This document shows, one piece after another, positions 2,876-59,533 of a stretch of DNA of 64,000 nucleotides. The translations under genes and the position numbers were made by a program. The stretch covers positions 301 to 64,300 of the forward strand of contig CAZFLE010000004.1 of the NCBI GenBank assembly GCA_964519895.1, in the 5' to 3' direction. Under the pieces are notes generated by a model. The model did not search any database. It saw only the letters and a list, made by a program, of their open reading frames with translations, and was not told the origin of the DNA. This DNA comes from an uncultured Enterobacterales bacterium (GTDB lineage: Bacteria > Myxococcota_A > UBA796 > CAJQPC01). Numbering within the stretch: the first letter of the stretch is position 1; every line of letters starts with the position of its first letter.

Positions 2876-2941
2876 CTGCCCTCCGGGGCCGCATGATAGG
2901 ACAGCCTGCGCCGCCAGCAGGCCCCACGGAGGCGACCCCGG

Positions 2942-4249: not shown

Positions 4250-4258
4250 CATCCCCCG

Positions 4259-5540: not shown

Positions 5541-5563
5541 GCCGGCGCACCCGCTCGCTCAGG

Positions 5564-7318: not shown

Positions 7319-7326
7319 GCTGACCC

Positions 7327-19500: not shown

Positions 19501-22078
19501 CCACGCTCTCCACCGTGTCGACCAGGGCCCCGCTCCAGTCCACGATCCGGCCATCGATCCGGGCGGAATGACCGGCCCGGAGGGTGTCCTCACTCGCCGC
19601 CACGCCCACGTAGAAGTCCCTGGGGTGGACCCAGGCCCGTGTGTCGCCACGGCTCGTGCGGCCGGAGCCGCCTTCGAACACCGCCACCTCGGCGACCAGC
19701 ACCGCCGTGCCGTCCGCCGTGGCGCGGGGCCGTGCGGTGGGGCAGCTCAGGACGGCCTGGCCCGCCTCGTCGAGCACGCCGTCGACCGTGCCCAGATCCA
19801 CCCGCCCGGCGATGGGACGCCCAAAGCGGTAGCCAGCTCCTCCGGGCGGGCTGAACACGCCAGGCTGCAGGTGACAGCTCACCTCGACCCGGCTGCCGCT
19901 GGCGCTTCCGCCGAACAGGTAGCGGGCGTCGACCTGGACGCGGACCGGCGAGCCCGCCAGCACGTGCTCGGCGGACGGCGTGGCCTCGACCGCCATGCGC
20001 TCGGGCACGAATTCCTCGACTGCAAAGGCCAGTGTCTGGACCACCGTTTCGCCCACGCTGAAGGCGGCGGACCAGGAACCGGTGGCTGCAAAGTCCGCCA
20101 GGGGCACGTCCAGGCTCACCAGGCCGACCGGGTTGGTCTGCACCGACGCTCTCCGCACCTCTTTGTCCCGCGGGTCCGTCAGCGTGATCACGATCGGCAT
20201 GCCGGTGTCCGGCGCGACCCGATCCTGGTCCCGGACCAGAGCCGCCAGGTGCACCACGTCGCCGGGACGGTAGACCCCGCGCTCACTCCAGGCCGAGATC
20301 CGGTAGGGCTTGTCCGCGCCGTAGGGCTCGCCGGACACGTCTTGCTCGGCCAGCGACAGCGCGACCGCGTCGAGCTCCACCACGGTCAGGTCACCGCGGG
20401 CCTGGACCATCAGCGCGACCGGTGCCGCGCGGTCCGGGCCGCTGTCGTCTGCGGACAGAGAGCAACCCCCGTCGCTCGTGGTCCGGCACGACCCCACGGT
20501 CCGGCCCGACGGCACCACCAGGTCCACCTGGGCCCCCACGACCGGCGCGTGGCTGTGGCTGTCCAGCACCCAGGCCGTGAAGCCCTTGTCGGCGTCCCGC
20601 TTGGCCACCACGGTCAGATCCGTGATCAGGATCCGGGCGTGGGTGCGCGTGCCCCCGCCGGACACGCCGAGCTCGTACAAGCCGTTGTCCACCTGGGGCA
20701 GGAGCCGTCCCACGTCGATCCAGGTCTGGGCCAAGGTGTCCGGGACGTGGGCCACGGGCACGGTGGTCTCCAGGATCACATCGCTCGTGCGGGCCGTGGC
20801 CGCGTCGCTGTCCGCTGACAGCCAGAACACGAGGTTCTCCGGCGGCACGTGGCGCACGGTCAGGGACACCTCGTCCAGGTTCATGTGGCGGATCGGCAGA
20901 CCCCGCCACGCCGACCGCGGCAGGTAGCGGCCCTGGGAGACGAACTGGACCTGGGGGCTCCGCGCGGGGACCTGGAGCTCCTGGGTGTAGCGCTTGCGCA
21001 GCAGGCCGCCGTCCACCGTGCGGGCACCGGCCGCGATCTCCAGGCTCAAGGGTCCGCGGGGCAGGTCACCCATCAGGCGGAAGCCGCCTCGAGTCGGCAC
21101 CACGGCCACGTCGACCGCCGGCTCCAGCCGCACGGCGGTGGCCAGGGCGTCGTCGGTCAGCAAGCAGCGGGGGCTCAGCCGTTCGGACATCCCGTGCTCG
21201 GGCAGCCACATCCAGCGTCGGTGCCAGCCCCGGGCCAAGGCGCCCTCGTCGTCACAGATCACCTCGATGGTGAAGCCGCTCGTGCCTTCGATCAGCGCGA
21301 CGCTGTGGACCTCGACCGCCGGGCCCGCGTCGTAGGTGACCTGACCGCTGCGCTTCCGGGTCCAGGCATAGGGGTCCACAGCGCTGGGCACCGGGCCGAG
21401 CTCGAAGCGCACGGTGCGGTCATCGTCCAGGGAGATCCCTTCGAGCAGGACCCGGATCCGGTGCGGCTCGTCGGGCCGGAAGACCCGGGTGGGCATGAGG
21501 GGGAAGCCGTCCACCGTGACCCTCAGGGCCCGGGCGATCTGCGAGGGCTCCACTGGACCGCTGAGCGCCAGGTCCAGCACCAGCCGCTGGTTGTCCGGGT
21601 CCCCGGAGACGATCTCCAGGTGGTGCACGGTCAGCTCGGGGGTGTCGAAGCGGGTGCCCCACTGGACCCCTGGGTCAGGGGTCCTCTGGCCCACCTTGCG
21701 CAGCGTGGCCTGGTAGGCGGTGCCTGGCATGAAGCCGTGCTCGGGCACGAAGTCCGCCACCGATCGGCTCCGCCACGTCAGCGTGCCCGCCACCGGCGGT
21801 TCCAGATCCAGCAGGAGCTCCTTGGCCTCCTGGCCAATGCGCCCGGACGCCACCGCCGGCTCCGGCAGGACCACCCGCAGTCGCTCGGGCGCGTTCTGTG
21901 TCGGGCCCACCACCAGCACGCCGGGCTGGCCGTCGACCACGAGGGTCGCCGGGAGCGTGGCGCCGGATGGGGCCGGCTGGCTGATGCTGTCCCGGGTCTC
22001 GACGACCTCGACGGGCATGGACTCGCCGCAGGCAGCGAGCAAGGGCAGGGCGAGCAAGGACAGGAGTCGACGGAGCAT
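16517..22078 (-). CDS. alpha-2-macroglobulin family lipoprotein (YfhM-like) with intact thioester
   Basis: Start set at ATG 22078 (MLRRLLSLLALPLLAACGE, with a lipobox) inside the 1915-aa track ORF. The thioester motif is YPYGCLEQTTST. The size (1853 aa) and the downstream pbpC are canonical for this pair. Confidence 0.92.
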   Translation of the reverse strand: MLRRLLSLLALPLLAACGESMPVEVVETRDSISQPAPSGATLPATLVVDGQPGVLVVGPTQNAPERLRVVLPEPAVASGRIGQEAKELLLDLEPPVAGTLTWRSRSVADFVPEHGFMPGTAYQATLRKVGQRTPDPGVQWGTRFDTPELTVHHLEIVSGDPDNQRLVLDLALSGPVEPSQIARALRVTVDGFPLMPTRVFRPDEPHRIRVLLEGISLDDDRTVRFELGPVPSAVDPYAWTRKRSGQVTYDAGPAVEVHSVALIEGTSGFTIEVICDDEGALARGWHRRWMWLPEHGMSERLSPRCLLTDDALATAVRLEPAVDVAVVPTRGGFRLMGDLPRGPLSLEIAAGARTVDGGLLRKRYTQELQVPARSPQVQFVSQGRYLPRSAWRGLPIRHMNLDEVSLTVRHVPPENLVFWLSADSDAATARTSDVILETTVPVAHVPDTLAQTWIDVGRLLPQVDNGLYELGVSGGGTRTHARILITDLTVVAKRDADKGFTAWVLDSHSHAPVVGAQVDLVVPSGRTVGSCRTTSDGGCSLSADDSGPDRAAPVALMVQARGDLTVVELDAVALSLAEQDVSGEPYGADKPYRISAWSERGVYRPGDVVHLAALVRDQDRVAPDTGMPIVITLTDPRDKEVRRASVQTNPVGLVSLDVPLADFAATGSWSAAFSVGETVVQTLAFAVEEFVPERMAVEATPSAEHVLAGSPVRVQVDARYLFGGSASGSRVEVSCHLQPGVFSPPGGAGYRFGRPIAGRVDLGTVDGVLDEAGQAVLSCPTARPRATADGTAVLVAEVAVFEGGSGRTSRGDTRAWVHPRDFYVGVAASEDTLRAGHSARIDGRIVDWSGALVDTVESVDLTLSRVVTEYGYKLDPSTGRERYTRLQRPLPERRETLAVHDGLFGVDLAPDDDAQGFQLVVRGDGASTLLGLSGTGQRYWWDDESDEVDQTPRPLKPTAVQVSLPPELHVGQRATARFAVPYGGRALISLETDRVVRSEWRDVEAGPQTWDFTLPSFDETAYVSVLVLKDPHLDSRQAFLPDRAFGVARSRVVPERWTASLTLDAPDEVRAHTPLEVTLDLGPQDGPTFATVAAVDEGILALTDFASPDPFGAIFPDRALGIDTWETVGWTLTVPPADGSRRTGGDAEGAMERVQMVKPVALWSGVVEIPHSGRTTVTLDVPQYQGALRVMAVAASAERMAHADTTVLVRDPLVVQTTLPRFLNQGDVVDIPVFLTNLSGEDRSVDLALAVEPLGPSDGLPVAVVGADETELFLADGAGESAVFRIRADGAWGAARFTVTATSGELRSVETLEVPVTTAGVRETELSMVRLDDGLNGLDGLVGDWLPATEQTTFWVTAHPYGRAFSHLKYLVRYPYGCLEQTTSTTRPLLFVSNLLEATEPELMADKDVDAMVRHGIERVLSMQTAGGGFAYWLGEDRPNFWGTAYATHMLLDAKGAGYPVSDAALDGALDYMERELAANEGRNDAAHGHAFKHGEAYVHYALALAGRGHKARILTALEDLPAQHRGPMAERRYLLQAALYLAGDRRYEQVLRDPDAAPLSLDLGRRNDASFYSELRHLGFTLSVYQDLFGAQGADQLARRVGTGLESRTARGYSTQELVWGITGLGKRVAGRRAEALNGTLRVDGQERTPEVDDELALSWTVNRASERDGLTLDVDVDPESDLYLVVRSEGMRAGGGTQVVSEGLRVGRELLNTDGTPLLLEDHTLGELVTVRTTIQNLTGDTVANVALVDRLPAGWELENPRLGRGGEAEWVDEDLLWSADHMNLRDDRVEVFGTLMPSERRQIVFQVRAVSAGTFTLPPVQAEAMYDPDLRARQPGTELTVRAPWGDEVL

Positions 22079-22290
22079 GAACACCTCGTGGCCGCCGGGC
22101 TGTGCCGAGCCTGGCCGCTCCCCTGTGAAGCAAGGCCCGTGCCTGGCCTGGAGGGGCTCCAGGACCCGCCTGTCGACGATCCGAAGCAGCGCATCCACCA
22201 TCCGGAGATCCCGGACATCTCGTGACAACGGGGCCTGAAGAGATGGTCCCGGTCCGCGTCCCACCGGAGACTCTCAACCGAGCCCACCCC

Positions 22291-38306: not shown

Positions 38307-38876
38307 ATGGCGCGCTACGAGCTGACCTGGATCGACAAGGACGCCGAGGAAGGACCGCTCTTCCGCATCGGCACCAAGGACGTCTACTCCCGCCCCCGCA
38401 GGGGCCAGCGGGTGGTGCGCCTCAAGGCCATCCACTCCCCGAACCTGGCCTATGTGGCGCCGGCGCTCCAGGCCTTCCGGGAGCTGGCGGAGCACTGGGG
38501 CGGGCCGATCGTGTTCATCATCGATCCCGACGTGAAGAAGCCACCGGCGGCCCAGTTCCTCTTCGAGTGGAGCCAGGCTGCGTTCCAGAACGGCTCGGTG
38601 GACCGCTCCTACATGGTCATGGGCAACCCGGTGACCCAGGTGCTGGGCCGCTTCGTCTGCCGCATGTTCGCGGCGGGTGGGATGCCCTTTGTGGCCCTGA
38701 ACGGCGAGAAGAACATGGACGCCGCCCTGGACGCCCTGGACCTGGACCTACCGGTGGCGGGCTGGTCGATCACCGACACCGGCACGGCGCTGGTGGTGCG
38801 CCGCAACCTGGGCGAAGGCGCCTATGGCCAGCTGGTCAAGCGGCTGTTCGCCCGGATGCGGGGTGACACCGCGTGA
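38307..38876 (+). CDS. hypothetical protein
   Basis: Internal ATG 38307 (MARYELTWIDKDAEEGPLF...) of track ORF 37950..38876; the upstream part is antisense to the previous gene. 189 aa, soluble, no family recognised. The stop overlaps the next start (GTGA). Confidence 0.55.
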   Translation: MARYELTWIDKDAEEGPLFRIGTKDVYSRPRRGQRVVRLKAIHSPNLAYVAPALQAFRELAEHWGGPIVFIIDPDVKKPPAAQFLFEWSQAAFQNGSVDRSYMVMGNPVTQVLGRFVCRMFAAGGMPFVALNGEKNMDAALDALDLDLPVAGWSITDTGTALVVRRNLGEGAYGQLVKRLFARMRGDTA

Positions 38877-40522
38877 AGGTCCTCCTGATCGACCCTCCGC
38901 ACAGCTGGTACCCAGCGTTCGAAGGGGTGCGAGCCCCGCACGTGGGACTGCTGCACATCGGCAGCTTCCTGAAGCGCCTGGGGCACGAGGTGCTCATCCT
39001 CGACGCCGCCACCGAAGGTCTGGACTGGCGGGCATTGGCGCAGATCTTCCGCGACGAGCGCCCCCACGTGGTCGGCATCAGCGCCAAGACCTTCATGGCC
39101 TACTCGGCGATGTACACCGCGCGGCTGGTCAAGCAGATCTGCCCGGACGCCACGGTGGTCGGCGGCGGGTACCACTTCAACTCGGTGCCCGAGGAAGCCC
39201 TGCGCATGTGCGGCCACCTGGACTTCGTGGTCCGGGGCGAGGGCGAGCAGACCATGGCGGCGCTGGTCGAGGGCCTGGACAACGGCTGGGACAAGACCGC
39301 CCTCGCCGCCGTGCCGGGCCTGAGCTTCCTGGACGGCGACCGCTACGTCGAGACCGGCAACCGGCCGGCCATGGACATCAACAGCCTGGCGATCCCCGAC
39401 TACGACCTGGTGCCCACCCGCAGCTACAGCCTGCCGTTCTTCGGCACCGGGGGCCGCAAGGGCGGCATGCTCACCACCTTTGCTCGGGGCTGCCAGTTCA
39501 AGTGCAACTACTGCTCGGAGCCGGTGCTCTGGGGAGACAGCGGTCTGCGCCAGCGCTCGGTCAAGCTGATGGTCGACGAGATCGAGCTGCTCCACCGGGA
39601 GTACGGCCGCACGAATTTCTGGTTCGGCGATGACCAGTTCACCGCCAACCGCGCCCACAACATCGCCTTCCTGGACGAGCTCGAGAAGCGCCAGCTGCCG
39701 ATCAAGTACTACATCGAGTCGCGGGCCAACGAGATCGCCCGGGACGCCGACCTGCTTCCGCGATTCCGCGCGACCGGCTGCCTGTGGATCATGCTCGGGC
39801 TCGAGACCCCCGACCCCAAGAAGCTCCGCGCCTGGAAGAAGGGCCACAGCATCGAACAGGCCATCGAGGCCTGCCAGGCCATCAAGCGCAATGGCATCGC
39901 GCTCCAGGTCATGCAGATCTTCGGGGACTGGGAAGACGACAAGGACACCATCCACGAGATCTTCCGCTTCACGAACTTCGTGAACGCCACCGTGCCGACC
40001 CTGCTGGCGAGCACCCCGTTCCCGCAGACCGGCACCCTGGCCAAGGGGCTCGAGAACGGCGCCATCCGCCACATCGACTACTCGATGTACGACCTGGCCC
40101 ACGCGACCATGGCGACCAAGCACCTGACCGTGGACGAGGTGCACAAGTACTACAACCGCTTGTTCAAGAAGTACTTCGGCAAGGTCAGCCACATCATCCG
40201 GCACATGAGCGAGCCCGATCTGCGCGTCATGTACATGGTCTGGATCCCCAGCTTCACAAAAGCCGCGGTCAAGGGTGCGCTCAAGGGTGCCGCCCGCCAG
40301 CTGGTCACGTCACTGCCCCAGTCCGACTACCAGCGGTACAAGGCCACCCTGATGGGGCGACAGGTCGCGTTCTACCAGCGAGATCCCAGCTGGCACCCAA
40401 GCCTGCGCGCCGCGGGCCTGCTCAAGCGTGGCGAGGGTCGTGTGCGGGTCGATCTGGCACGGAGCCCTCCAGCCGCAGCTCCTCTCGGGGGCGCTGCGCC
40501 CGGCATCGGCATGGGCGGCTGA
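38873..40522 (+). CDS. B12-binding-domain radical SAM protein
   Basis: 549 aa. The N-terminal cobalamin-binding-like Rossmann region is MKVLLIDPP...GHEVLILDA...PHVVGISA...VVGGGYH...DFVVRGEGE. It is followed by ARGCQFKCNYCSEP (CxxxCxxC) and a TIM-barrel-like core. Confidence 0.85.
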   Translation: MKVLLIDPPHSWYPAFEGVRAPHVGLLHIGSFLKRLGHEVLILDAATEGLDWRALAQIFRDERPHVVGISAKTFMAYSAMYTARLVKQICPDATVVGGGYHFNSVPEEALRMCGHLDFVVRGEGEQTMAALVEGLDNGWDKTALAAVPGLSFLDGDRYVETGNRPAMDINSLAIPDYDLVPTRSYSLPFFGTGGRKGGMLTTFARGCQFKCNYCSEPVLWGDSGLRQRSVKLMVDEIELLHREYGRTNFWFGDDQFTANRAHNIAFLDELEKRQLPIKYYIESRANEIARDADLLPRFRATGCLWIMLGLETPDPKKLRAWKKGHSIEQAIEACQAIKRNGIALQVMQIFGDWEDDKDTIHEIFRFTNFVNATVPTLLASTPFPQTGTLAKGLENGAIRHIDYSMYDLAHATMATKHLTVDEVHKYYNRLFKKYFGKVSHIIRHMSEPDLRVMYMVWIPSFTKAAVKGALKGAARQLVTSLPQSDYQRYKATLMGRQVAFYQRDPSWHPSLRAAGLLKRGEGRVRVDLARSPPAAAPLGGAAPGIGMGG

Positions 40523-49153: not shown

Positions 49154-50713
49154 CTAATCCCTCGGCAGGCTCCCCGGGTGGGCGACCTTGCGCAGCAGGC
49201 TGCAGGTGACCGGTCCCCAGCGAGGGTTCGGCGGCAGCGGGCACAGGTCCTGGCAGGTGTCGCGGCAGGGCTCGGCGAAGCGCGAGGGCGCGGGCTGGGC
49301 GTGGCCCTGGCCGATCACCGTGAAGCCCAGGCCGGTCTCTGGACCGTCGGCGCCGGGCCGGTGCGCCTCGAGGTAGTCCACGAAGGCGGTCCGCCCCAGC
49401 TCGATGCCGAAGCGGCCCGGGTCCTGGCTCCAGGGAGACCCAGGCTCCAGCTCGATGGAGAAGGCCCGGACCCCCACGCGGATGCGACTGGCCGCCTGCT
49501 GACAGGTCGCGGCGAGCTCCCGGGCTCGCTGGCCGCCATCGTCGGGCTCCCAGGGCAGGTTCGAGGTGAAGAACAGGACCAGGTCGACCCCGGCGGCGTC
49601 ACAGGTCCGCACCGTCTCCAGCAGGCCCTCGTTCGACAGGAACATGCCCCGAGCTCGCTTGCGCACCGCTTCGTCGGCGCTGTCCGGGGACACGGCGATC
49701 GCGGGCCGACGAAAGGTCTCCGCCAAGCCCTGGACCAGGTCCGGGTGCGGGAGCTTGTAGCTCTCGAACAGGATCTCCGGACGGTGACCGCTGGCGCGGA
49801 CCTTGTCGAACACATTGAGCCAGTAGCGGGGGTCGTCCGGGGTCGGATCGAAGCACGCGTGAACGCCCCGGAAGCCCATGTCCATGGCCTGACCGATCAG
49901 CTCGGCGACCCGCTGGGAGCTGGCGCGGGTGTACCGCTTGCGGCCCGAGTGGAGCGCGTGGGCCGTGCGCCCGCCCCCGCACCAGGAGCAGTCGAACACG
50001 CAGCCGCGCCCTACCGGGAGCACGAAGTACCGCCGTGAGCTGCCGAAGAAGCGCTGCGCCCCCCGCATGACCCAGCGGGCCCGCCGCCCGTGGGGCAGGT
50101 AGTGCGGGCCGCACCAGTCGCGGATGTAGCGGGCCCGGTGTCGCAACAGGTCCAAGCGCTCGTAGGGGAGAGCGTTCAGGGTGGCCCCGTCGACCACGTA
50201 GCTCAGGGGATTCTGGCGAATGCCCTCGGGTGCCCGCCAGGTCAGGTTGGGCACGTCGGCGAGGGGTGTGCCCGCGTCCAGGGCCGCGGCCAGGACCGAC
50301 AGCGGGCGCTCCCCATCCCCGCGGATGACCCCGTCGATCTCGGGCACCGTTGCCAGGATCTCGTCGTGGAAGAGGCTGGCGGTGAAGCCCCCCAGCACCA
50401 CGTAGGCACCCGGGTTCGCAGCCTTGATCGCCCGGGCGGTCTGGATGGTCTCCCAGGTCTGCGGGTGCCAGTGCAGGGACAGTCCGACCAGCGCGGCGCC
50501 GCGCTCGGCGCAGTGTCGCCCGGCCTCGAAGCCCGGGTCCTCGGCCTGTTCCACGCCCAGGTGCAGCAGCTCGACGTCGTGACCGTCGTTGGCCAGCACG
50601 CCCCCCAGGGCCGGCAGGCCCACCGCCATGCAGTTCACCGAGCTCGCCGGGCCCAGCGGGCCGAAGTCGTCGCGCAGCTTGGGCGCGTGCACGAGCTGTA
50701 CGGTCAGGGGCAT
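49154..50713 (-). CDS. B12-binding-domain radical SAM protein (second copy in the window)
   Basis: 519 aa. The N-terminal region is HDVELLHLG...ALVGLSLHW...YVVLGGFTAS...IDGVIRGDGE. It is followed by VGRGCVFDCSWCGG (CxxxCxxC). Confidence 0.8.
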   Translation of the reverse strand: MPLTVQLVHAPKLRDDFGPLGPASSVNCMAVGLPALGGVLANDGHDVELLHLGVEQAEDPGFEAGRHCAERGAALVGLSLHWHPQTWETIQTARAIKAANPGAYVVLGGFTASLFHDEILATVPEIDGVIRGDGERPLSVLAAALDAGTPLADVPNLTWRAPEGIRQNPLSYVVDGATLNALPYERLDLLRHRARYIRDWCGPHYLPHGRRARWVMRGAQRFFGSSRRYFVLPVGRGCVFDCSWCGGGRTAHALHSGRKRYTRASSQRVAELIGQAMDMGFRGVHACFDPTPDDPRYWLNVFDKVRASGHRPEILFESYKLPHPDLVQGLAETFRRPAIAVSPDSADEAVRKRARGMFLSNEGLLETVRTCDAAGVDLVLFFTSNLPWEPDDGGQRARELAATCQQAASRIRVGVRAFSIELEPGSPWSQDPGRFGIELGRTAFVDYLEAHRPGADGPETGLGFTVIGQGHAQPAPSRFAEPCRDTCQDLCPLPPNPRWGPVTCSLLRKVAHPGSLPRD

Positions 50714-50756: not shown

Positions 50757-53700
50757 TCAGTCGTCCTTGAGCCAGCTCGGCTTCTGGCGCTTGCGCACAG
50801 CGGTCCGCCGTCCGGAGCGCGGGCGGGCGCCGCGATCCGGCCGGGGCTGGGGACGGGGCTGGGGTTCGGGCTCGGGGTCTTCGATCTCCTCGCTGTCGTC
50901 GTCGTCCTCGATCTCCAGGACCGTTGCGTCGAAGACCTCCTCGACCCGCTCTTCCTCGTCCTCGATCTCCAGCGCGGAGGCGTCGAAGACCTCCTCGATG
51001 AGCGGCTCTTCGTCCTCGACCACGTCGGCGGTGAAGTCTTCGACCTCCTCGACCTCCTCGACTTCCTCCTCGACCTCCATCGCCGTGGCGTCCACCACCT
51101 CGTCGACTTCGGGCTCCGGCTCCGGCTCCGGCTCCGGCTCGGGGCGGAGCACCTTGGCCGCGGGCTTGGCAATGGGCTCGCTGCGGTCGCGATCGTCGGA
51201 CTTGCCCAACAGGGACTGCCAGCTGGCCTTCAGAGCCTCCCGGTCCATCATGACCGTCTTGGGCTCGTCGTCCTGGGCGGCCGGAGGCGGCGGCTGGGAC
51301 GGGGCCGGCTTCTCCATCGGCTCGCTGTGCTCCTTGAGCATCGCCTGCCACTTGGCGGCGAGGGCCGAGCGATCCATCATCACCGTGGCGGGCTCGTCGG
51401 CTTCGGGTGCCGGCGTGGGCGCGGCGGGCTCGGGGGCTGCGGCTGCGGGGACCGGCACCGCCTCGAAGCCCTTGGGCAGGGCGCCGGGCTCGCGGAGCCG
51501 CTTGGCCTTGCGGCGGCCCATGGGCCTCGACGTCGTGGTGGTCACCACGGGCCCCGCAGCGGCTTCGGCGTCCAACACCGCCTGCTGGGCAGCAGCCAGC
51601 GCCGTGCGCGCGGCCTGGACCGCCTCTGTGGCCGGCGCCACAGCCTTGCGGGCGGTGTCGTAGAGACGCTTTGCCGACAGGCAGGCGGTCATGGCCTCCT
51701 GGAAGGCCAGCTCCTCGCCCTGCCTGGCCGCCTGGTGCATGAAGACCGCCGACGAAGCCTCCACGGCCTTGGCCTGGGCGTCTGTCAGCGCGGCTTCGGC
51801 GGCGGTGGCAGCCATGGTGGCAAAGTCCAGGGAGCCCTCGTCCTGGGCAGGGCCGGCCTGGGCAGCGGCCTCGGTGAGCTGGTCGCTCAGCGCACTGCGG
51901 CGCGGCCCCGTGGCGTCGTGGGCGGCACCGGCCTGGGCGACCTGTTCCAGGAGTCGATCCCGGCTCGCCCTGGCCTCGGCCAGGGCCCCATCGCTCAGCG
52001 CGAGCAGGGATCGGGCCTCGTCCAGGCGGGCCTGGAGCGCGGCGGTGGCCTCACTCTGGGCGGCGGCCTGGGCCTGGGCGCGCTGGAGGGCCTCCTGGGC
52101 CTCGGTGTGGGCGGTGCGGGCCGCCGCGACCGCGTCCCCCGCACCGGCCAGGGCCTCCCGGGCCGCCGTCGCCACGGACGAAGCCCCGTCCCAGGCCGAG
52201 CCCGCCGCCGTCACGGCCTGCTCAGCTGACGCCCGGGCCTCTGCGGCGGCCCCCACCACAGCCGTGGCCTCGCCAGCGGCGGCCGTGGCGGCGGCCAGCC
52301 CGGTCTCGGCTTGGGCCAGCGCCTGGGTCGGACCGCTCAGGTCGGCAGCCGGTGCAGCGTCGCTCGCCGCGGCGGCCTCGTCGACCTGCTCGTCCAGGTC
52401 CATGCCGATCCGGCCCTTGGCCAGTGTGTTGTTCCCGAAGGCCTCGCTGGCGCTCGCCGCGGCCTGGCGCGCCTGGTCGGCGTGCGCCCGGGCCGTCGTG
52501 AGTGCGGCCTGGGCCTGGTCGGCGACCTGGCGTGCTTCGGCCAGCCGAGCCTGGAGTGCCGCCGCCGCATCGCTTCGGGCGACCAGGGCCAGCTGGGCTT
52601 CGTCCACCGCGAGCTGGGCTGCGTCGCGGGCCGCGAGAGCGCTCTCCGCAAGCCCCCTGGCCTCGGTCACAGCGGCCTGGGCGGCCTGGGCGGCCTCGTG
52701 GCAGGCGCTGACGGCTCGGGCGGTCGCTTCCTGGGACGACGTGGACTGGGCCAGGGCCTGGGCGCCCGCCTCCCGTGCGGCCTGGGCCGTCGTGGCACCG
52801 CTCCCCGCTTCGTCCAGCACTGCCTGGGCCCCGGCCAGGGCCTCGTCGGCGCTCGCCAGAGATCCGCCGTCCGAGCCCGATGCCTCGGCCAGGTCGGCCG
52901 ACGCCTGGGCCACGTCTGCGGCACGGCCGTCGGCTCGGGTGCGGGCGTCGGCAGCAGCCTGTGCGGCCGTCTCGGTGACCGCACGCCGCTCGTCCCGACC
53001 GACCGTGGCCGTGTCGAGGTCCTGGGTGGCCTGATCCAGCCGGCCCTGCGCCTGGACCAGGGTCGCCTGGAGCGCCGCCGCGGCCTCGTCCTTGGCGGCC
53101 GCCGCCTGCTGGGCTTGGCCCAGGGCATCCTGGGCCCCGGAGAGGGCTTCCCGTGCCGACATGACATGGGTCAGCGCGTCTTCCCGGGCCTGGTTCGCCG
53201 CCTCGCAGACCCCGCGAGCTTCGGCGAGAGAAGACCCGGCGCCACTGGCGGCGTCACCGGCCTGGGCCACGGCTTCGGCGGTCTGGTCGCGGGCCTGGAC
53301 ACCCTCGTCGAGACCAGCCTGGGCCGCGGTCAGCTGCTCGTCTGCGTCGGCCAGCGCCTGCTCGGCCGTGGACACGGCCCCGTCGTCGTCGGAGACGCCT
53401 GTGAGCGCAGCGACCTCCTCGGCCATCTGCCCCGCTCGCATCTCCTGGTGCTCGACGTGGGTGGCCAGCTCTTCGGCGGCCGCAGTGACGGCGGCCTGGG
53501 CCGCCGTCGCGGCTTCCTGGGCCTGGGCCAGGGCGGTGTCACCCTCTGCGAGCGCCTGGCGGGCCGCGTCCAGCGTCGCCTCGAGTGCACCGGCTGCCTC
53601 TGCGTGCTGGGCGGCGGCCTGCTGGGCGGTCTCGAGGTCCGCCTGGGCCTGGGAATGGGCCTGCTGGCACGCCGCCAGGACTTCCTGAGCACCGACCACC

Positions 53701-55973
53701 GCCGCCTGAGCGGGTTCGCAGGCGCTGGCCGCATCGCCTGCAGCCACGGTGGCAGCCTCGACCTTGGCCTGGGCCTGGCCGAGGGCCTGGGTGTGCTCGG
53801 TTCGGGCCAGGTCGGCCGCCTGGTGGGCGGACTGGGCGGCAGACAGCGCGCCTTCGGCCTGGGCCAGGGCCGAAGCGGCGTCGGCCAGTGCACCGCCCGG
53901 CTCGAGCCCCAGGTCCTCCAGCCCCGACTCGGCCTGGGTGAGCTCTTCGGCCAGCGCCTCCAGCCGCTCGGCCTGGGCGTCCTGGGCGGTGCCGGCGGCC
54001 TCGAGAGCGGTCTGGGCGGCACCGATGGCCTGGGTGGCGCTGGCCACGGTCTGGTCATGGCCAGCCAGGCCTTGCTGGGCCGCCTCCAGAGCTGCGCTTA
54101 TCTGGGCCCGCTGGGCCTCCTGGGCCTGGGCCTGGTCCTGGGCGGCAGACAGCGCGGCCTGGGCGGTCTCGACGGCTGCGGAGGCTGTCTCGACCGCCGT
54201 TGCAGCGTCATCGCGGGCCGCATGGGCCTGGTCCCGGGCCTGGGTCGCGCCGCCCAGTGCGGTCTCCAGTGCCTCGGCCTGGGTCTGGGCCGCCTGTACG
54301 GAACCGGTGTGGGCCTCCCGGGCCTGCTGGGCCGCGGTGTGGCTGGCCTCGGCCTGCTCCCAGGCGTCCTGGGCGGTCGCGAGCGAAGCCTGGGCCGCGT
54401 CCAGACCGCTGTCCTCGCCGTCGTCGGAGACCACCGCGGCCTGGGCCTGGGCGAGCGCCTGGGTGCCTGCGCTGACCGCTTCCGCCGCCGTCTTGGCACC
54501 CGAGGCCGCCTGGGCCACCGCAGCCTGGGCCCCGGCCACGGCCTCTTCTGCTGTCTCGACACCGGCCACAGCCTGGGCCGCTGCGCTTCGTGCCTCGTCG
54601 AGCCGGGCCTGGGCGGCCTCTCGGGCCTCGCCCTGGGCGGCCTGGGCCTGGTCGAGGGCGGCCTGGGCCTGATCGAGTGCGGTGGCCGCAGCCTGGGCGG
54701 CCTGGGCCGCGGCCTCCTGGTGGGTGCCAGCCGTGGCCTGGGCCTGGGCCGCCTGGGCCTGCTGGGCCTGGGCGTCGTCCAGCTGGGCTTCGGCGCCCTC
54801 GATCGTAGCCCGCAGCGCCTCGATGGCCTTCCGCGCCTTGGGGACGGCCCCTTCGGCCTTGGCCAGGGCAGAGGCCGCCGCCTCGACCGCCTGCTCCGCC
54901 GCATCCAGGTCCGCGTCACCCCCCGCCTCGGCCGCCGCTTCCTCGGCCTGGGCCAGCTCCTCGGCAGCGGCGGTGACCCGCTCGGCCCCTTCGGCGGCGA
55001 AGCCCTGGGCCTCTCGGGCGGTGGTCAGGAGCTCGCTGTGGGCTTCGTCCTGGTCCGCAGCTGCGGTCTCGGCGTTGGCGAGGGCCTGGCCAGCGGCCTC
55101 GAGCGCCGCTTGGAGCTCGGCTCGGCGCTCGGCGTTGGGGTCGGGTTCGGCGGCGGCCTTGCGCCCGGCGCCCGGGGTGGCGCCCTCGCCGTAGGCCTCG
55201 GCGAGCAGCCAGCCCGCGAGCAAGCGGTAGAGCGGGATGCTCTTGGCTTCCCCGGTCAGCCCGTCCCGCGAGTTGTCCTCGAGCGCTGGCAGCGCCTCGC
55301 GCAGGCCTTCGGCCAGGCCCTCGACTTCGGCGCCGCTGTGCTCTGCGATCCCGTCCAGCTGGGGAAACAGGGCTTCGAGTACCTGTCTGGCCCCGGCCAC
55401 GTCGTCCGGATCTGCCCACTCCTCGAAGGCTTCGATGGCCGAGTCCCCGTGGAGGTCGAACAGCTGGCTGACGTGGTCGCCCTCCAGCGGCTCCATGTCC
55501 GACGAGAACGCGACCGCCACGTCGACCGCGGCGAACCAGAGCACGAGCCCCCGACCGGCCTGGTGGTCGAGCAATGCATTGGCACGGTCCTCGGCGTCGC
55601 CGTCGAACAGGTGCCAGGCGACCAGCGCGATGCCCAAGGCCCGGTAGGCGGCGTCCCGTCCTTGGTCGTCCTCCAGGTCGGCGAGCCCCGTGGCCCACTC
55701 GGCGTGGGCATCGAACAGGGACAGGGCGTTGCGCGGACCCAAGGCGATCGACGCGAATTGGTCCCCGGCATCCAAGGTCCGGGCGACCTCGGCGGCGCGT
55801 CGGACTTCGTCTCCTTCGGGGCGGGCGCTGGGGGCGTCGCCGCCCCCTGCCAGGTCCGCGACCTCGCCCAGGAGCTCGCCCCCGGGCTCCAGGGCCAGGA
55901 GTGCCTGGAGGATGGTCTGGGCCGGAGCGCCGTCGCCCCAGGTGCCCAGGAAGTCGTAGAGGGCCCCCTCCAA
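50757..55973 (-). CDS. giant (1,738 aa) Ala/Gln/Glu-rich coiled-coil protein with globular N-terminal domain and acidic repeat tail
   Basis: Track ORF with a TTG start 2 nt after the upstream stop. The N-terminal ~290 aa are non-repetitive (MEGALYDFLGTWGDG...WHLFDGDAEDRANALLDHQAGRG...). About 1,150 aa follow of heptad-like A/Q/E/D sequence (e.g. LDQAQAALDQAQAAQGEAREAAQARLDEAR). The tail has two copies of EP.TVMMDR.AL.A.WQ, an (EP)5 run and VEEVFDA(S/T).LEIED repeats, ending in a basic terminus RRTAVRKRQKPSWLKDD. GC3 is very high in this frame, and the antisense 1443-aa ORF is Gly/Leu/Arg junk. Confidence 0.8.
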   Translation of the reverse strand: MEGALYDFLGTWGDGAPAQTILQALLALEPGGELLGEVADLAGGGDAPSARPEGDEVRRAAEVARTLDAGDQFASIALGPRNALSLFDAHAEWATGLADLEDDQGRDAAYRALGIALVAWHLFDGDAEDRANALLDHQAGRGLVLWFAAVDVAVAFSSDMEPLEGDHVSQLFDLHGDSAIEAFEEWADPDDVAGARQVLEALFPQLDGIAEHSGAEVEGLAEGLREALPALEDNSRDGLTGEAKSIPLYRLLAGWLLAEAYGEGATPGAGRKAAAEPDPNAERRAELQAALEAAGQALANAETAAADQDEAHSELLTTAREAQGFAAEGAERVTAAAEELAQAEEAAAEAGGDADLDAAEQAVEAAASALAKAEGAVPKARKAIEALRATIEGAEAQLDDAQAQQAQAAQAQATAGTHQEAAAQAAQAAATALDQAQAALDQAQAAQGEAREAAQARLDEARSAAAQAVAGVETAEEAVAGAQAAVAQAASGAKTAAEAVSAGTQALAQAQAAVVSDDGEDSGLDAAQASLATAQDAWEQAEASHTAAQQAREAHTGSVQAAQTQAEALETALGGATQARDQAHAARDDAATAVETASAAVETAQAALSAAQDQAQAQEAQRAQISAALEAAQQGLAGHDQTVASATQAIGAAQTALEAAGTAQDAQAERLEALAEELTQAESGLEDLGLEPGGALADAASALAQAEGALSAAQSAHQAADLARTEHTQALGQAQAKVEAATVAAGDAASACEPAQAAVVGAQEVLAACQQAHSQAQADLETAQQAAAQHAEAAGALEATLDAARQALAEGDTALAQAQEAATAAQAAVTAAAEELATHVEHQEMRAGQMAEEVAALTGVSDDDGAVSTAEQALADADEQLTAAQAGLDEGVQARDQTAEAVAQAGDAASGAGSSLAEARGVCEAANQAREDALTHVMSAREALSGAQDALGQAQQAAAAKDEAAAALQATLVQAQGRLDQATQDLDTATVGRDERRAVTETAAQAAADARTRADGRAADVAQASADLAEASGSDGGSLASADEALAGAQAVLDEAGSGATTAQAAREAGAQALAQSTSSQEATARAVSACHEAAQAAQAAVTEARGLAESALAARDAAQLAVDEAQLALVARSDAAAALQARLAEARQVADQAQAALTTARAHADQARQAAASASEAFGNNTLAKGRIGMDLDEQVDEAAAASDAAPAADLSGPTQALAQAETGLAAATAAAGEATAVVGAAAEARASAEQAVTAAGSAWDGASSVATAAREALAGAGDAVAAARTAHTEAQEALQRAQAQAAAQSEATAALQARLDEARSLLALSDGALAEARASRDRLLEQVAQAGAAHDATGPRRSALSDQLTEAAAQAGPAQDEGSLDFATMAATAAEAALTDAQAKAVEASSAVFMHQAARQGEELAFQEAMTACLSAKRLYDTARKAVAPATEAVQAARTALAAAQQAVLDAEAAAGPVVTTTTSRPMGRRKAKRLREPGALPKGFEAVPVPAAAAPEPAAPTPAPEADEPATVMMDRSALAAKWQAMLKEHSEPMEKPAPSQPPPPAAQDDEPKTVMMDREALKASWQSLLGKSDDRDRSEPIAKPAAKVLRPEPEPEPEPEPEVDEVVDATAMEVEEEVEEVEEVEDFTADVVEDEEPLIEEVFDASALEIEDEEERVEEVFDATVLEIEDDDDSEEIEDPEPEPQPRPQPRPDRGARPRSGRRTAVRKRQKPSWLKDD

Positions 55974-55975
55974 GG

Positions 55976-56491
55976 TCAGCCGGCGAGCTCGGCCAGCTCC
56001 TGCTCGAGCTTGGCGACCTCGGCGGCAGCGGCGTCCTTGGCGGTCTGGGCTTCTTCCAGGCCCTGCTCGGCTTCGGCGAGCTCCGCCTGGCGGGCCTCGT
56101 GCTCTTCTTGGAGGCCCGCGGCCTCGTCCTCGAGCCCCTTGAGCTCCTCGCGCAGTGCGGCGACCTTTTCCTGGAGCTCAGCCGCCTGGCCTTGGCGGCC
56201 TTCTTCTTCGGTGCGCAGGGCTTCCAGTTCGGCAGCGAGCTTGTCGCGCTCGGCGGTGGCTGCCTCGACGGCTGCCTCGGCGTCGGTCACGGCGGTCTCG
56301 AGCTCGGGCTCCTGGGCCTTGAGCTTCTCCAGCTCTTCGGTGGCGGCGTCCCGGGCGCCTTCGGCCTCCTCGAGTGCCTTGTCTGCGGCCTCGGAGGCGG
56401 CTTCGGCCTCCTTCAGGGCGGCTTCGGCAGCCTCGAGCTCCTGGGCCTTCTGGTCGCGATCCTCCTGTAGCTTGCTGAGCTCTTCCGACAT
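55976..56491 (-). CDS. 171-aa Glu/Ala-rich coiled-coil protein
   Basis: Internal ATG 56491 (MSEELSKLQEDRDQKAQELEAAEAALKEAEAASEAADKALEEAEG...) of the 181-aa track ORF. It is almost entirely heptad-like E/A/L/K sequence and lies 60 nt downstream of rtcB. Confidence 0.65.
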   Translation of the reverse strand: MSEELSKLQEDRDQKAQELEAAEAALKEAEAASEAADKALEEAEGARDAATEELEKLKAQEPELETAVTDAEAAVEAATAERDKLAAELEALRTEEEGRQGQAAELQEKVAALREELKGLEDEAAGLQEEHEARQAELAEAEQGLEEAQTAKDAAAAEVAKLEQELAELAG

Positions 56492-56551
56492 GGTGCGGAC
56501 GGTAGCAACCCGGCCTGCCACGGGTCAATCGACCCACGGTTCTCGCAGTGG

Positions 56552-57784
56552 CTACCCCTTCACGCACACCACCTGGCGCAGGGTGTGGACCACGTCGACC
56601 AGGTCGGCCTGGGCCGCCATCACCGCGTCGATGTCCTTGTAGGCCATGGGCGTCTCGTCGACGACGGCGGCGTCCTTGCGGCACTCGACGCCGGCGGTCG
56701 CGCGGGCGTGGTCGGCGGCGGTGAAGCGCTTCCGGGCCTCGGTCCGGGACATCGCACGGCCGGCGCCGTGGGAGCAGGAACAGAACGACTCGGGGTTGCC
56801 CTTGCCGCGCACGATGTAGGACCGGGTGCCCATCGAGCCCGGGATGATGCCCAGCTCGCCCACACCGGCCCGGACGGCCCCCTTGCGGGTCACCCACACG
56901 TCCTTGCCGTAGTGGTGCTCACGGGCCACGTAGTTGTGGTGGCAATTCACCGCCTCAGCGACGGCGTGGAACGCCGGCAGCGAGCGGACCTGGGCCAGGG
57001 CGCCCAGGGTCGCGGCCATCATCAGCTCCCGGTTGCGCCGGGCGAAGTCCTGGGCCCAGCCCACGGCCTGGACGTAGTCGTCGAAATACCGCGAGCCTTC
57101 GGGCAGATAGGCCAGGTCCCGGTGGGGCAGGTGGACGAACCACCGCGCCATCTCTTCCTTGGCACGCTCGATGAAGTAGCTGCCGATGCGGTTTCCGACG
57201 CCGCGGGATCCGGAGTGCAGCATGACCCAGACCTGGTCGGCCTCGTCCAGGCAGACCTCGATGAAGTGGTTCCCCGAGCCCAGGGTGCCCAGGTGCACGC
57301 GGTGGTTGCTCTTGGCGATCTTGGGATGCTTGGCGCAGATGGCGTCGAAGCGGCCCACGAGCTCGGACCACGCGGCGTCCACAGAGGCAGGCGGCTCTCC
57401 CCAGGAGCCGCGGTCCCGCTTGGTCTTGCGGCTCACGGTGCGACCGTGGGGCACGGCGGCTTCGATCAGGCTGCGGGTGTCCTTGAGGCTGTCGGGCAGA
57501 TCGCTGGCGCTCAGCGACGTCTGCACCGCCATCATCCCGCAGCCCAGGTCCACGCCGACCGCGGCCGGCACGATGGCCTTGTCGCTGGGAATGACCGAGC
57601 CAATGGTGGCCCCCCGGCCCAGGTGCACATCGGGCATCGCCGCGACCCACTTGTGGATGAACGGCAGCTCGGCGACCTGCTGGAGCTGGGCCTTGGCCTT
57701 GTCTTCGACGGGCACGCCGTGGGTCCAGGTCTTCACCAGGCCACCGCTCGGAGACTTCAGGATCTCGTAGGGCGTGGTCGTCAT
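56552..57784 (-). CDS. rtcB: RNA-splicing ligase RtcB
   Basis: Internal ATG 57784 (GGAG 11 nt upstream) of the 441-aa track ORF. Hallmark RtcB metal/GMP-site motifs are present: MPDVHLGRGATIGSV, DLGCGM, LGSGNHFIE, HSGSRGVGN, IPGSMGTRSYIV and CSCSHGAGR. Confidence 0.95.
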   Translation of the reverse strand: MTTTPYEILKSPSGGLVKTWTHGVPVEDKAKAQLQQVAELPFIHKWVAAMPDVHLGRGATIGSVIPSDKAIVPAAVGVDLGCGMMAVQTSLSASDLPDSLKDTRSLIEAAVPHGRTVSRKTKRDRGSWGEPPASVDAAWSELVGRFDAICAKHPKIAKSNHRVHLGTLGSGNHFIEVCLDEADQVWVMLHSGSRGVGNRIGSYFIERAKEEMARWFVHLPHRDLAYLPEGSRYFDDYVQAVGWAQDFARRNRELMMAATLGALAQVRSLPAFHAVAEAVNCHHNYVAREHHYGKDVWVTRKGAVRAGVGELGIIPGSMGTRSYIVRGKGNPESFCSCSHGAGRAMSRTEARKRFTAADHARATAGVECRKDAAVVDETPMAYKDIDAVMAAQADLVDVVHTLRQVVCVKG

Positions 57785-57820
57785 GGGCTCGGTGCTCCGT
57801 GGGGGATGGCTGGCAGTGGA

Positions 57821-57836
57821 GCAAGGGGCGTGCCAC
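57821..57836 (-). promoter_or_regulatory. sigma-54 (-24/-12) promoter of rtcB
   Basis: The minus strand reads TGGCAC-GCCCC-TTGCT, a perfect TGGCAC-N5-TTGC(A/T). Its -12 element ends 36 nt upstream of the rtcB ATG. It sits in the divergent rtcR-rtcB intergenic region. Confidence 0.85.
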
Positions 57837-57916
57837 GGCACTCTACCGCGCAAGTCCCTGGAATCCGGTGGGCACACGGACAGAGCCTCGCGCCCTTGAT
57901 ATCGTCATTGATACAA

Positions 57917-59533
57917 ATGAATCAGACTCGCAAGGAGACCGTGGTCGTCGGGTTCCTGGGCACCACCCTGGACCGGGGCCGCGGGGTGAAGCGCTGGGGC
58001 CGTTGGCGGCCGACCGTGGCCGCATGCACCCAGCCGGATCTGGCGGTGGCCCGCCTTCACCTGCTGGTCCAGGAGCCCTGGACCCGCATGGCCGAGGGGG
58101 TCCAGAAGGACCTGGCCGACGTGGCGCCCACCACCGACGTGGTGGTGCACGTGCTGCCGGAGCACGATCCCTGGGACTTCGAGCAGGTCTATGCCCGCCT
58201 GCTGGACTTCACCCAAGAGGTGACCTTCGACCCGGAGACCCAGGACCTGCTGGTCCACATCACCACCGGCTCCCACGTGGTGCAGATCTGTCTCTTCCTG
58301 ATGACCGAGTCCCGGCACCTGCCGGGCCGGTTGCTCCAGACGTCGCCGGAGAAGGGCCGGGACGCGCCGACCCACGGGCGGATCGCGATCATCGACCTGG
58401 ACCTGTCCCGCTACGACGCCATCGCCCGGCGCTTCGAGGAGGAGCAGCGCCAGGGTGCGAGCCTGCTCAAGCACGGCATCCAGACCCGGAACCCCCACTA
58501 CAACCAGCTCATCGCGCGGCTGGAGCAGGTGGCGTTGCGGTCCAGCCGGCCGGTGTTGTTCCAGGGGCCCACCGGCGCCGGCAAGTCGCTCCTGGCCCGC
58601 AAGGTGCACGAGCTCCGGGCGGCCCGCCGGCTGGTGGGCGGGCGCTATGTCGAGGTGAACTGCGCCACGATTCGCGGCGACGGCGCCATGTCCACCCTCT
58701 TCGGCCACGTGCGCGGTGCCTACACCGGTGCCCAGCGGGAGCGGGCCGGAGTGCTGCGCGAGGCCGACGGCGGCACCCTCTTCCTGGACGAGATCGGCGA
58801 GCTTGGGCTCGACGAGCAGGCGATGCTGCTGCGGGCTCTGGAGGAGAAGCGCTTCCTGCCCCTAGGGGCGGATCGCGAGGTCGGCAGCGACTTCCAGCTG
58901 GTCGCCGGCACCAACCGGGACCTGCGGGTTGAGGTCGCGGCCGGGCGCTTTCGCGAGGACCTGCTGGCCAGGATCGACACCTGGACCTTCTCGCTGCCGG
59001 CGCTGCGGGAGCGGCCCGAGGACATCCCCCCCAACGTGGAGTTCGAGCTGGACCGCTTCGCCCGGGACGAGCGACGGCGGGTGACCTTCAACAAGGAGGC
59101 CCGGGAGCGCTTCCTGGGCTTTGCGACCGGTCCGGGGGCGCGGTGGTCCCGGAATTTCCGCGACCTGGGCAGCGCCGTGGCCCGCATGGCCACTCTGGCA
59201 CCGGGGGGGCGCATCACGGTCGCCGACGTGGACCAGGAGATCGATCGGCTGCGCCACAGCTGGGCGGTCCCGGGCTCGGACGGCAACGACACCGACGTGT
59301 GTGCCCAGGTGCTGGGTGGAGAGCGGGCTGCCGCACTGGACCCCTTCGACGCGGTCCAGCTCGCGCTGGTCATTCGCACCTGCCGCAGGTCGGCGTCGCT
59401 GTCTGCGGCTGGCCGCTCGCTCTTCGCCCAGTCGCGCCTGCGTCGGTCCTCGACCAACGACGCGGACCGCCTGCGCAAGTACCTGGCCAAGCACGGCCTG
59501 ACCTTCAAGGACCTGAGAGGCCCCGATGTCTGA
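57917..59533 (+). CDS. rtcR: sigma-54-dependent transcriptional activator RtcR (CARF-like N-domain + AAA+ + HTH)
   Basis: Internal ATG 57917 (MNQTRKETVVVGFLGTTLD...) of the 982-aa track ORF; the upstream part is antisense to rtcB. The RtcR-type N-domain is ...WRPTVA......LLV......HITTGSHVVQICLFLMTESR..PGRLLQTSP. The AAA+ motifs are GPTGAGKS, the GAFTGA variant GAYTGA, LFLDEIGEL, and RFREDLLARI. Confidence 0.92.
   Translation: MNQTRKETVVVGFLGTTLDRGRGVKRWGRWRPTVAACTQPDLAVARLHLLVQEPWTRMAEGVQKDLADVAPTTDVVVHVLPEHDPWDFEQVYARLLDFTQEVTFDPETQDLLVHITTGSHVVQICLFLMTESRHLPGRLLQTSPEKGRDAPTHGRIAIIDLDLSRYDAIARRFEEEQRQGASLLKHGIQTRNPHYNQLIARLEQVALRSSRPVLFQGPTGAGKSLLARKVHELRAARRLVGGRYVEVNCATIRGDGAMSTLFGHVRGAYTGAQRERAGVLREADGGTLFLDEIGELGLDEQAMLLRALEEKRFLPLGADREVGSDFQLVAGTNRDLRVEVAAGRFREDLLARIDTWTFSLPALRERPEDIPPNVEFELDRFARDERRRVTFNKEARERFLGFATGPGARWSRNFRDLGSAVARMATLAPGGRITVADVDQEIDRLRHSWAVPGSDGNDTDVCAQVLGGERAAALDPFDAVQLALVIRTCRRSASLSAAGRSLFAQSRLRRSSTNDADRLRKYLAKHGLTFKDLRGPDV

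Follow-up and report, generated by a model that had tools for sequence, protein, structure and literature searches.

A giant head-rod-tail coiled-coil protein and its small acidic partner form a conserved two-gene module in Myxococcota

Introduction

Long coiled-coil scaffolds organize polarity, division, and shape in bacteria and, to our knowledge, few families of such proteins are known. Scy and FilP of Streptomyces are long coiled-coil polarity and cytoskeletal proteins with a 51-residue repeat; golgins and EEA1 are long coiled-coil tethers of eukaryotes, and the polar hub proteins HubP/FimV and PopZ carry acidic repeat regions. Here, we analyzed a stretch of 64,000 nucleotides (nt) from an uncultured bacterium labeled Enterobacterales and placed by GTDB in Myxococcota_A (assembly GCA_964519895.1, contig CAZFLE010000004.1, positions 301 to 64,300; hereafter, the window). 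It encodes a protein of 1,738 amino acids (aa), referred to below as the giant, and, directly upstream, a small coiled-coil partner. The giant is a real gene of a conserved two-gene module and has a folded head, a rod quantized in units of about 172 aa, and a tail with multicopy motifs. Long bacterial coiled-coil scaffolds are a known kind of protein; this family, with its head, 172-residue unit, tail motif, and partner, is undescribed in the libraries and literature that we searched, and a literature search for a described family returned nothing relevant.

The giant shares with Scy and FilP a very long Ala/Glu/Gln-rich coiled coil, a high-GC bacterial host, a super-period imposed on heptads, the lack of an enzymatic domain, and a presumed scaffold role. 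However, no sequence relationship with them was detected. The periods of the giant are 7 and ~172 residues, with lag 51 outside the top 25 autocorrelation lags. Further differences are its folded head of 290 aa, which is from a separate family, the motifs in its acidic tail, and a small partner gene of its own. By analogy with crescentin and other intermediate filament (IF)-like proteins (PF19220, Rod_CreS), which share the head-rod-tail plan and have heptad rods that are segmented and contain stutters, assembly without nucleotides is plausible. Yet, the giant did not match PF19220 and its partner reached 16.7 bits against a cutoff of 100; moreover, the rod of the giant comprises ~1,190 aa vs. 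~300–400 aa, and its head is large, globular, and mostly found without a rod.

As a proposed tether, the giant would be analogous to golgins and EEA1, with one anchored end, a 100–200-nm coiled-coil spacer containing breaks, and capture motifs at the other end, although it is bacterial, unrelated in sequence, and without a GRIP, FYVE, or transmembrane (TM) anchor. The long coiled coil is also common to SMC, MukB, and Rad50 and explains the best (sub-threshold) NCBIfam matches, but the giant has no ATPase head, hinge, or Walker A motif. Its likeness to HubP/FimV and PopZ would lie in a strongly acidic, repeat-bearing, probably disordered region proposed to recruit several clients; in the giant, however, this region is the tail of a rod, LysM, a TM segment, and the FimV C-terminal motif are missing, and no homology was detected. 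Unlike AglZ and FrzS, the giant has no N-terminal receiver domain (no Response_reg match), and its head has a different, all-alpha fold.

Results

The gene pair and its reading frame

The open reading frame (ORF) of the giant, taken from the ORF list and its translation, is unbroken across 5.2 kb of the minus strand. Its TTG start is the earliest possible one downstream of an in-frame stop and lies 2 nt past the TGA of the preceding gene, while the stop codon occupies 50757–50759. The N-terminus MEGALYDFLGTWG is identical in two orthologs, which have the same layout with TTG following the partner stop. The orthologs found share 76%, 72%, and 41% identity with the giant in the head. By composition, the protein divides into a head (aa 1–290), a rod (aa 291–1478; 1,188 aa), and a tail (aa 1479–1738; 260 aa). 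This layout, proposed in a preliminary description of the sequence, is real and is kept in no fewer than 26 long proteins, representatives that share 50% identity or less, referred to below as the long members.

50757..55973, minus strand: giant head-rod-tail gene (ORF translation, orthologs, 147 head homologs)
55976..56491, minus strand: partner gene, 171-aa very acidic coiled-coil protein; TGA stop 2 nt before the TTG of the giant
52311..56642, plus strand: not a gene; 1,443-aa antisense shadow ORF with a Gly/Leu/Arg-rich translation

At the GC content of the window (67–77%), long ORFs occur on both strands. The shadow ORF runs antisense to the rod and the partner gene and arises from GCN, CAG, and GAG codons of the coding strand; a gene caller could mis-annotate it as a gene. 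We regard the minus strand as coding because the head, the rod architecture, and the tail motifs all have homologs in independent assemblies. Assembly collapse or expansion of the middle part, a concern raised in the preliminary description, was rejected: the DNA repeats have 60–80% identity, none is longer than 100 nt or closer than ~80%, and the ortholog at locus L002 has the same architecture. The gene is nevertheless hard for short-read metagenome-assembled genomes (MAGs). The ortholog at L001 (6720–10489) is frameshifted near aa 530 and its contig stops inside the gene, while the tail of the L002 ortholog contains a masked N-run (about 14400–14500). Both records are titled “uncultured Enterobacterales,” with 67–74% GC and Myxococcota-like genes. 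The genes of the window (MopE-motif/FG-GAP, LVIVD, NHL, ECF sigma, RtcR) point to Myxococcota too.

Comparisons of the whole giant, head, tail, and partner with Pfam, NCBIfam, and PADLOC gave solely sub-threshold coiled-coil noise (SMC, Rad50, JetC, crescentin), and no Pfam or NCBIfam domain, Walker A motif, TM segment, or signal peptide was found in the giant. When the head and the tail were each run against 5.8 billion proteins in a word-indexed search, nothing was returned, not even the query, as this genome is not in the collection. An Rfam scan of the window gave no match.

The head domain

55104..55973, minus strand: head, aa 1–290, all-alpha globular domain (AF2 model, homolog alignment)

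The head (composition A20 L13 G11 E10 D10; net charge −38) was modeled by AF2 with a 48-sequence family alignment as a domain of 14 helices, with a predicted local distance difference test (pLDDT) score of 89.5 and a predicted TM-score (pTM) of 0.86; modeling from the single sequence failed (pLDDT 45). An exhaustive phmmer search of 1.84 billion representatives identified 147 relatives at E ≤ 1e-3, 74 at E ≤ 1e-10, and 12 at E ≤ 1e-30. The local profile of the domain spans positions 4–280, i.e., nearly all of the N-terminal 280 residues. D68 and D107 are invariant in the family alignment, and the family, of which the giant is a member, is characterized by an all-alpha domain of ~280 aa with the motifs LDxGD, LExDQxxDAxxKxLGLA, PAGxAL…AAVEVALPF, and LPVYRLLxARLxAE. 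A profile search of the 5.8-billion-protein set added 63 further proteins, all annotated as “hypothetical protein” and none with a Pfam domain. Where named, the sources are without exception Myxococcota or Deltaproteobacteria MAGs.

The preliminary description had recognized neither the head nor the TVMMDR module of the tail, and our searches of Pfam, NCBIfam, PDB sequences, and Foldseek agree in assigning them to no known family; no match of head or tail to a well-characterized family was obtained. Specifically, the head had no relative in Pfam, NCBIfam, or PADLOC; the head and its profile produced apolipoprotein and spike helix noise alone against PDB sequences; and a Foldseek comparison of the good head model with PDB and BFVD gave a best E of about 0.4 and TM ≤ 0.29.

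The majority of the family has no coiled coil. The head occurs as a stand-alone protein of ~280 aa or followed by a Pro-rich linker and a ~180-aa beta-rich domain; most often, it carries a C-terminal TM anchor (~340 aa). It is also found C-terminal to a caspase, duplicated behind a TerB-like region, with HEAT repeats, and in the giant coiled-coil form.

P0095, P0099, P0121, P0129: head fused to a Peptidase_C14 caspase
P0032: TerB-like region and two head copies
P0124: head with HEAT repeats
L010 6039–9698, L012 6084–9897, L007 5001–8029, L014 7001–9681: head paralog clusters

The fusions hint that the head is a reusable interaction or effector module. The paralog clusters, located on other Myxococcota contigs, consist of a 282-aa stand-alone gene (divergent, minus strand), a ~340-aa TM-anchored gene, and a 540–660-aa gene encoding a head, a Pro-rich linker, and an unrecognized beta-rich domain. 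In the anchored paralogs the head is N-terminal to the C-terminal TM anchor, which is preceded by Lys/Arg residues; this topology places the head in the cytoplasm. The clusters suggest that the head may be a cytoplasmic, membrane-proximal interaction module. No second head-domain gene was found within the window.

The rod and its 172-aa units

The rod (composition A36 Q11 E9) had been described as a heptad-like, low-complexity region. The first part of this view was borne out: BLOSUM autocorrelation peaks at lags 7, 14, 21, 28 and on, as well as at 343 and 171–172, and the heptad register is kept over stretches of 40–130 residues, separated by stutters and a/d-type shifts. The region is not of low complexity, however. 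When cut at recurring breaks containing Gly, Asp, Ser, or Pro, it resolves into an ordered tandem array of six full units of ~172 aa (164–176 aa) and one partial unit (6.6 units in all), which align nearly gaplessly with 27–37% pairwise identity vs. a background of ~17%.

54927..55103, minus strand: neck, aa 291–349, first coiled-coil segment preceding the repeat array (heptad register)
54435..54926, minus strand: unit 1, aa 350–513, 164 aa (unit alignment)
53922..54434, minus strand: unit 2, aa 514–684, 171 aa (unit alignment)
53403..53921, minus strand: unit 3, aa 685–857, 173 aa (unit alignment; DNA repeat family D2, 513–519 nt spacing)
52887..53402, minus strand: unit 4, aa 858–1029, 172 aa (unit alignment; DNA repeats)
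52359..52886, minus strand: unit 5, aa 1030–1205, 176 aa (unit alignment; DNA repeats)
51852..52358, minus strand: unit 6, aa 1206–1374, 169 aa (unit alignment; DNA repeats)
51540..51851, minus strand: partial unit 7, aa 1375–1478, 104 aa (unit alignment)

The unit spacing is also visible in the DNA (513–519 nt), with merely 64–70% identity, and Gly-rich breaks within units were seen by eye in the unit alignment. Fully extended as a coiled coil, the rod would span about 176 nm, of which each unit would contribute about 25.5 nm (by arithmetic). The number of units differs by whole units between relatives. In the L002 ortholog (72% identical), the rod is shorter by 49 + 42 + 60 + 21 = 172 residues, exactly one unit, missing within the region aa 540–775. 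Of the 20 long members analyzed, 12 have a period of 169–176 aa among their six strongest long lags; members with this period are P0001, P0002, P0003, P0004, P0005, P0006, P0016, P0017, P0020, P0022, and P0027 (z = 8.1), and in five (P0001, P0002, P0003, P0020, and P0027) it is the single strongest lag.

The Ala content of the rod falls from A36 in the window to A27 in L002 (66.6% GC) and A14–22 in distant members, which have far more Arg; the Ala richness is partly a GC effect. Identity to L002 is graded along the protein, with 61–80% in the head, about 50% in the tail, and 28–46% in the rod, as would be expected if the rod kept two functional ends apart.

The partner gene

A coiled-coil gene of 158–174 aa was present directly upstream of the giant on the same strand in nine of the ten loci examined (the window, L001, L002, L003, L004, L008, L009, L017, and the P0017 locus); it was not found at L016. 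The encoded proteins have a conserved LE.ELA.L.G end. Against the profile libraries, the partner in the window showed generic coiled-coil matches below threshold alone. The length of the partner (171 aa in the window) is close to that of one rod unit. An origin of the partner as a diverged rod unit was not supported, since a hidden Markov model (HMM) of the units scored it no better than heptad-preserving shuffles (window, L001, L002, L004, and L008).

Both proteins are strongly acidic, with a net charge per 100 aa of −10.9 for the giant and −19.9 for the partner. A generally acidic, halophile-type proteome was rejected as the cause, because the cytoplasmic enzymes of the window (RtcB, RtcR, and both radical SAM proteins) are near neutral, at about 0 to +1.5.

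The tail and its short motifs

The tail is acidic and Pro-rich (composition E18 P14; 37 Pro; net charge −36) and probably disordered.

50760..51539, minus strand: tail, aa 1479–1738 (composition, charge, L002 identity)
51345..51395, minus strand: motif copy 1, EPATVMMDRSALAAKWQ, aa 1527–1543
51216..51266, minus strand: motif copy 2, EPKTVMMDREALKASWQ, aa 1570–1586
51108..51143, minus strand: (PE)6 run, PEPEPEPEPEPE, aa 1611–1622 (perfect hexanucleotide repeat)
50901..51107, minus strand: acidic/aromatic repeats VDEVVDATAMEVEEE, VEDFTADVVEDEE, IEEVFDASALEIEDE, and VEEVFDATVLEIEDD (Tandem Repeats Finder, TRF)
50760..50843, minus strand: basic extreme C-terminus RPRSGRRTAVRKRQKPSWLKDD with a conserved Trp (…RKRQKPSWLKDD)

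The preliminary description had listed two copies of EP(A/K)TVMMDR(S/E)AL..(K/S)WQ, which we found at the places given, together with an EP run, EEVFDA repeats, and a basic C-terminus. All of these are present, the EP run reading as (PE)6. TRF detected GGCTCC ×4.8 with 100% identity at 51112–51140 (GAGCCG on the coding strand). EEVFDA(S/T)xLEIED(E/D) occurs in two clear copies (aa 1659–1673 and 1677–1691) and two degenerate copies upstream, with a 54-nt period ×2.2 at 50902–51019; the L002 tail has EEIEDFSAVEVEDE repeats at the matching position. The C-terminal ends of homologs (RRREQWTPP, RRARSWTPG, VRVWKPP, …KKRDD) are akin to that of the giant. Many tails of long members end in basic residues with Trp (RRxxW.PP) or in …RR.DD, and the tail of the giant shows both. 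Apart from the last ~28 basic residues, the nucleic-acid-binding role that had been considered for the tail is unlikely at a net charge of −36.

The motif shared by the two copies (hereafter, the TVMM motif) is a family feature. Its 54 instances give the consensus [E][D][D][ED][AD][AK]-T-[VM][MVI][LMF]-[SD][RP][ED][EA]-L..R, in which Thr is invariant. Of the 26 long members, 22 have it, with one to several copies per tail (two in the window) and a density of 7.9 per 1000 aa in the tails vs. 0.43 in the rest of the same proteins, an 18-fold enrichment. The motif is practically absent from the classes of the head family without a coiled coil (short and TM-anchored), and its regular expression matched nothing besides the tail of the giant among all six-frame ORFs of the window.

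For the Ser/Thr-kinase sites of Mycobacterium tuberculosis, the motif X-acidic(4)-T-X-(X/V)-phi-(P/R)-I is quoted in PMC6888350. TVMM motifs resemble the phospho-acceptor sites of Hanks kinases in having upstream acidic residues, Thr, and a large hydrophobic residue at +3. On this resemblance, the TVMM motif is possibly a Hanks-kinase/FHA phospho-Thr site, which we treat as a lead. It is equally possible that it is a docking motif made of a beta-strand plus a helix.

Discussion

Taken from sequence, the reading that we tentatively favor, with a probability of about 0.4, is that the giant and its partner constitute a conserved two-gene Myxococcota module serving as a non-enzymatic, elongated coiled-coil scaffold or tether. 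The rod would dimerize and/or pair with the small partner and so provide a stiff spacer of up to ~175 nm if fully extended. Docking would be the task of the head, which would bind at a fixed site that the membrane-anchored paralogs either share or supply. Binding of head to head or of head to a membrane complex seems the likeliest anchor, because the heads of the paralogs are TM-tethered and clustered in twos and threes. The flexible tail would then recruit one or more clients multivalently through TVMM-type motifs. Such recruitment may be switched by Thr phosphorylation, read for instance by FHA domains; we consider a switch possible since the motifs are shaped like Hanks-kinase sites.

Several points weigh against a scaffold or tether. 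The family has no characterized homolog, and each functional step is one that we infer. The giant and partner are extremely acidic. Basic residues that could form salt bridges between helices are scarce in the rod, so that the coiled coil may depend on counter-ions or a partner for its stability. Beyond generic coiled-coil character, the partner has no specific similarity to the rod units. The units, which have Gly-rich breaks inside them, may be either extended or folded back on themselves. The kinase and FHA idea draws on motif resemblance, and no neighbor other than the partner is conserved, hence context indicates no pathway.

If the giant is a ruler or tether, it would be a new building block of bacterial cell organization, in a phylum known for its complex cell biology and its many eukaryote-like kinases. 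The family is reported from Myxococcota alone and offers handles for further work: a confidently folding head, a quantized rod, a tail motif with an invariant Thr, and an obligatory partner. Were it merely structural filler, the gain would be in annotation, as more than 200 “hypothetical proteins” could be grouped with domain borders.

The nearest rival, drawn from the same facts and in our estimate unlikely, is a self-assembling cytoskeletal filament. The giant and partner would form an IF-like, nucleotide-independent mechanical lattice, as for crescentin, FilP/Scy, and cyanobacterial heteropolymers, with head and tail controlling lateral or longitudinal assembly instead of tethering clients. 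The head-rod-tail plan and the segmented heptad rod with stutters are consistent with it; the regular 172-aa super-period could set an axial repeat, the second coiled-coil protein of about one unit length is obligatory, and the partner weakly matches the crescentin rod profile PF19220 (16.7 bits). However, neither protein reaches the profile threshold, and the rod exceeds IF or crescentin rods fourfold in length. Most members of the family of the folded 290-aa head lack a coiled coil, the strong net negative charge disfavors lateral packing, and the tail motifs are multicopy, conserved, and docking-site-like.

A bolder version of the scaffold or tether would unite all elements in one Myxococcota-specific cytoskeletal or tethering system composed of the giant, the unit-length partner, and the membrane-anchored head paralogs. 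It would act as a periodic (~25 nm) heteromeric coiled-coil ruler with its length tuned by 172-aa units, a new head fold as anchor, and a kinase-switched phospho-Thr tail for clients. We hold this complete picture to be improbable.

The genes surrounding the pair in the window could be taken to suggest a role as an accessory of Rtc-type RNA-damage or stress responses.

56552..57787, minus strand: rtcB (RNA ligase), 60 nt upstream of the partner (Pfam RtcB, 1.5e-131)
57821..57835, minus strand: sigma-54 −24/−12 box TGGCACGCCCCTTGC upstream of rtcB (exact consensus match)
57917–59533, plus strand: divergent rtcR (RtcR and Sigma54_activat domains)

These form a complete Rtc module. The perfect sigma-54 box precedes the ATG at 57787 by ~35 nt, so RtcB probably starts at this ATG, as MTTTPYEILK, and not at the GTG at 57877. 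Under this reading, a single transcript from the RtcR/sigma-54 promoter would carry rtcB and the pair, whose products would, for example, organize ribosomes or tRNA-repair factors. The pair directly follows rtcB in the window and L001, next to the perfect box and divergent rtcR, and no terminator was found in the 60-nt gap between rtcB and the partner (sigma-70 promoter and terminator scans were uninformative). Furthermore, tRNA-related genes neighbor the pair elsewhere, i.e., GlnRS in L002 (7015–9378) and SerRS in L004 (6340–7611) besides RtcB in the window and L001, which is maybe a coincidence. Yet, the arrangement of rtcB, rtcR, and sigma-54 box is confined to the two closest genomes. The rtcB gene is not adjacent to the pair in L002, in spite of 72% identity, nor in the six other loci L003, L004, L008, L009, L016, and L017; in addition, there is no RNA-binding domain and the protein is polyanionic. 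This makes the role improbable. Neighbors besides the partner are not conserved in general. In L002, glnS precedes the pair and the same metzincin (79% identity) follows it, with the B12-radical-SAM gene that intervenes in the window missing; the remaining loci carry unrelated genes.

Export of the giant as a surface fibril or secreted protein, such as a type-1 secretion system (T1SS) substrate or an M-protein-like fiber, is marginally less probable still. The charge density of giant and partner resembles that of secreted-type proteins of the window (metzincin, CotH, FG-GAP), unlike that of its cytoplasmic enzymes; both the window and L002 have a metzincin gene downstream, and T1SS substrates have no N-terminal signal peptide. 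Against this, no signal peptide, TM segment, RTX repeats, or sorting motif was found in the giant. Its N-terminus MEGALYDFLGTWGDG has no n- or h-region, with the top 19-residue Kyte-Doolittle mean (1.54) inside a head helix, and Pfam matched no repeats in the protein. No secretion genes were found near the pair in any locus, and the TM topology of the paralogs puts the head in the cytoplasm.

A chromosome-organizing ATPase related to SMC, MukB, or Rad50 is very improbable. It is suggested by sub-threshold matches to TIGR02168 (41 bits for the giant, 31 bits for the partner) and by JetC and LmuB matches of the partner in PADLOC, but these are confined to coiled-coil regions, far below cutoffs, and the all-alpha head fold is unrelated. 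Membership was refuted for the giant, as TIGR02168 reached 41.4 bits vs. a cutoff of 567 over rod residues 696–956 alone, with no SMC_N or hinge domain and no [AG]x4GK[ST] motif. Finally, a high-GC non-coding ORF or mis-assembled repeat, as might be suspected from the long ORFs on both strands at 72–77% GC (e.g., the 1,443-aa shadow) and from the L001 frameshift and L002 N-run, was effectively ruled out: many independent assemblies share the head, rod period, tail motif, and partner down to 30–40% identity, repeats in the DNA are short and have diverged, and the frame is intact.

Other genes of the window were recorded in passing. Two B12-binding radical SAM genes are present, one of which lies between the giant and the metzincin and is missing from this position in L002. 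A pair of genes encodes an ordinary bacterial alpha-2-macroglobulin (1,918 aa) and a PBP1c-type penicillin-binding protein, and five ORFs on the same strand (449, 158, 139, 723, and 324 aa) have good coding statistics and no Pfam match.

49154–50713, minus strand: B12-binding radical SAM gene between giant and metzincin (TIGR04190, 159 bits vs. a cutoff of 500)
38867–40522, plus strand: second B12-binding radical SAM gene
14175–22273, minus strand: alpha-2-macroglobulin and penicillin-binding protein gene pair
2900–8298, plus strand: five same-strand ORFs

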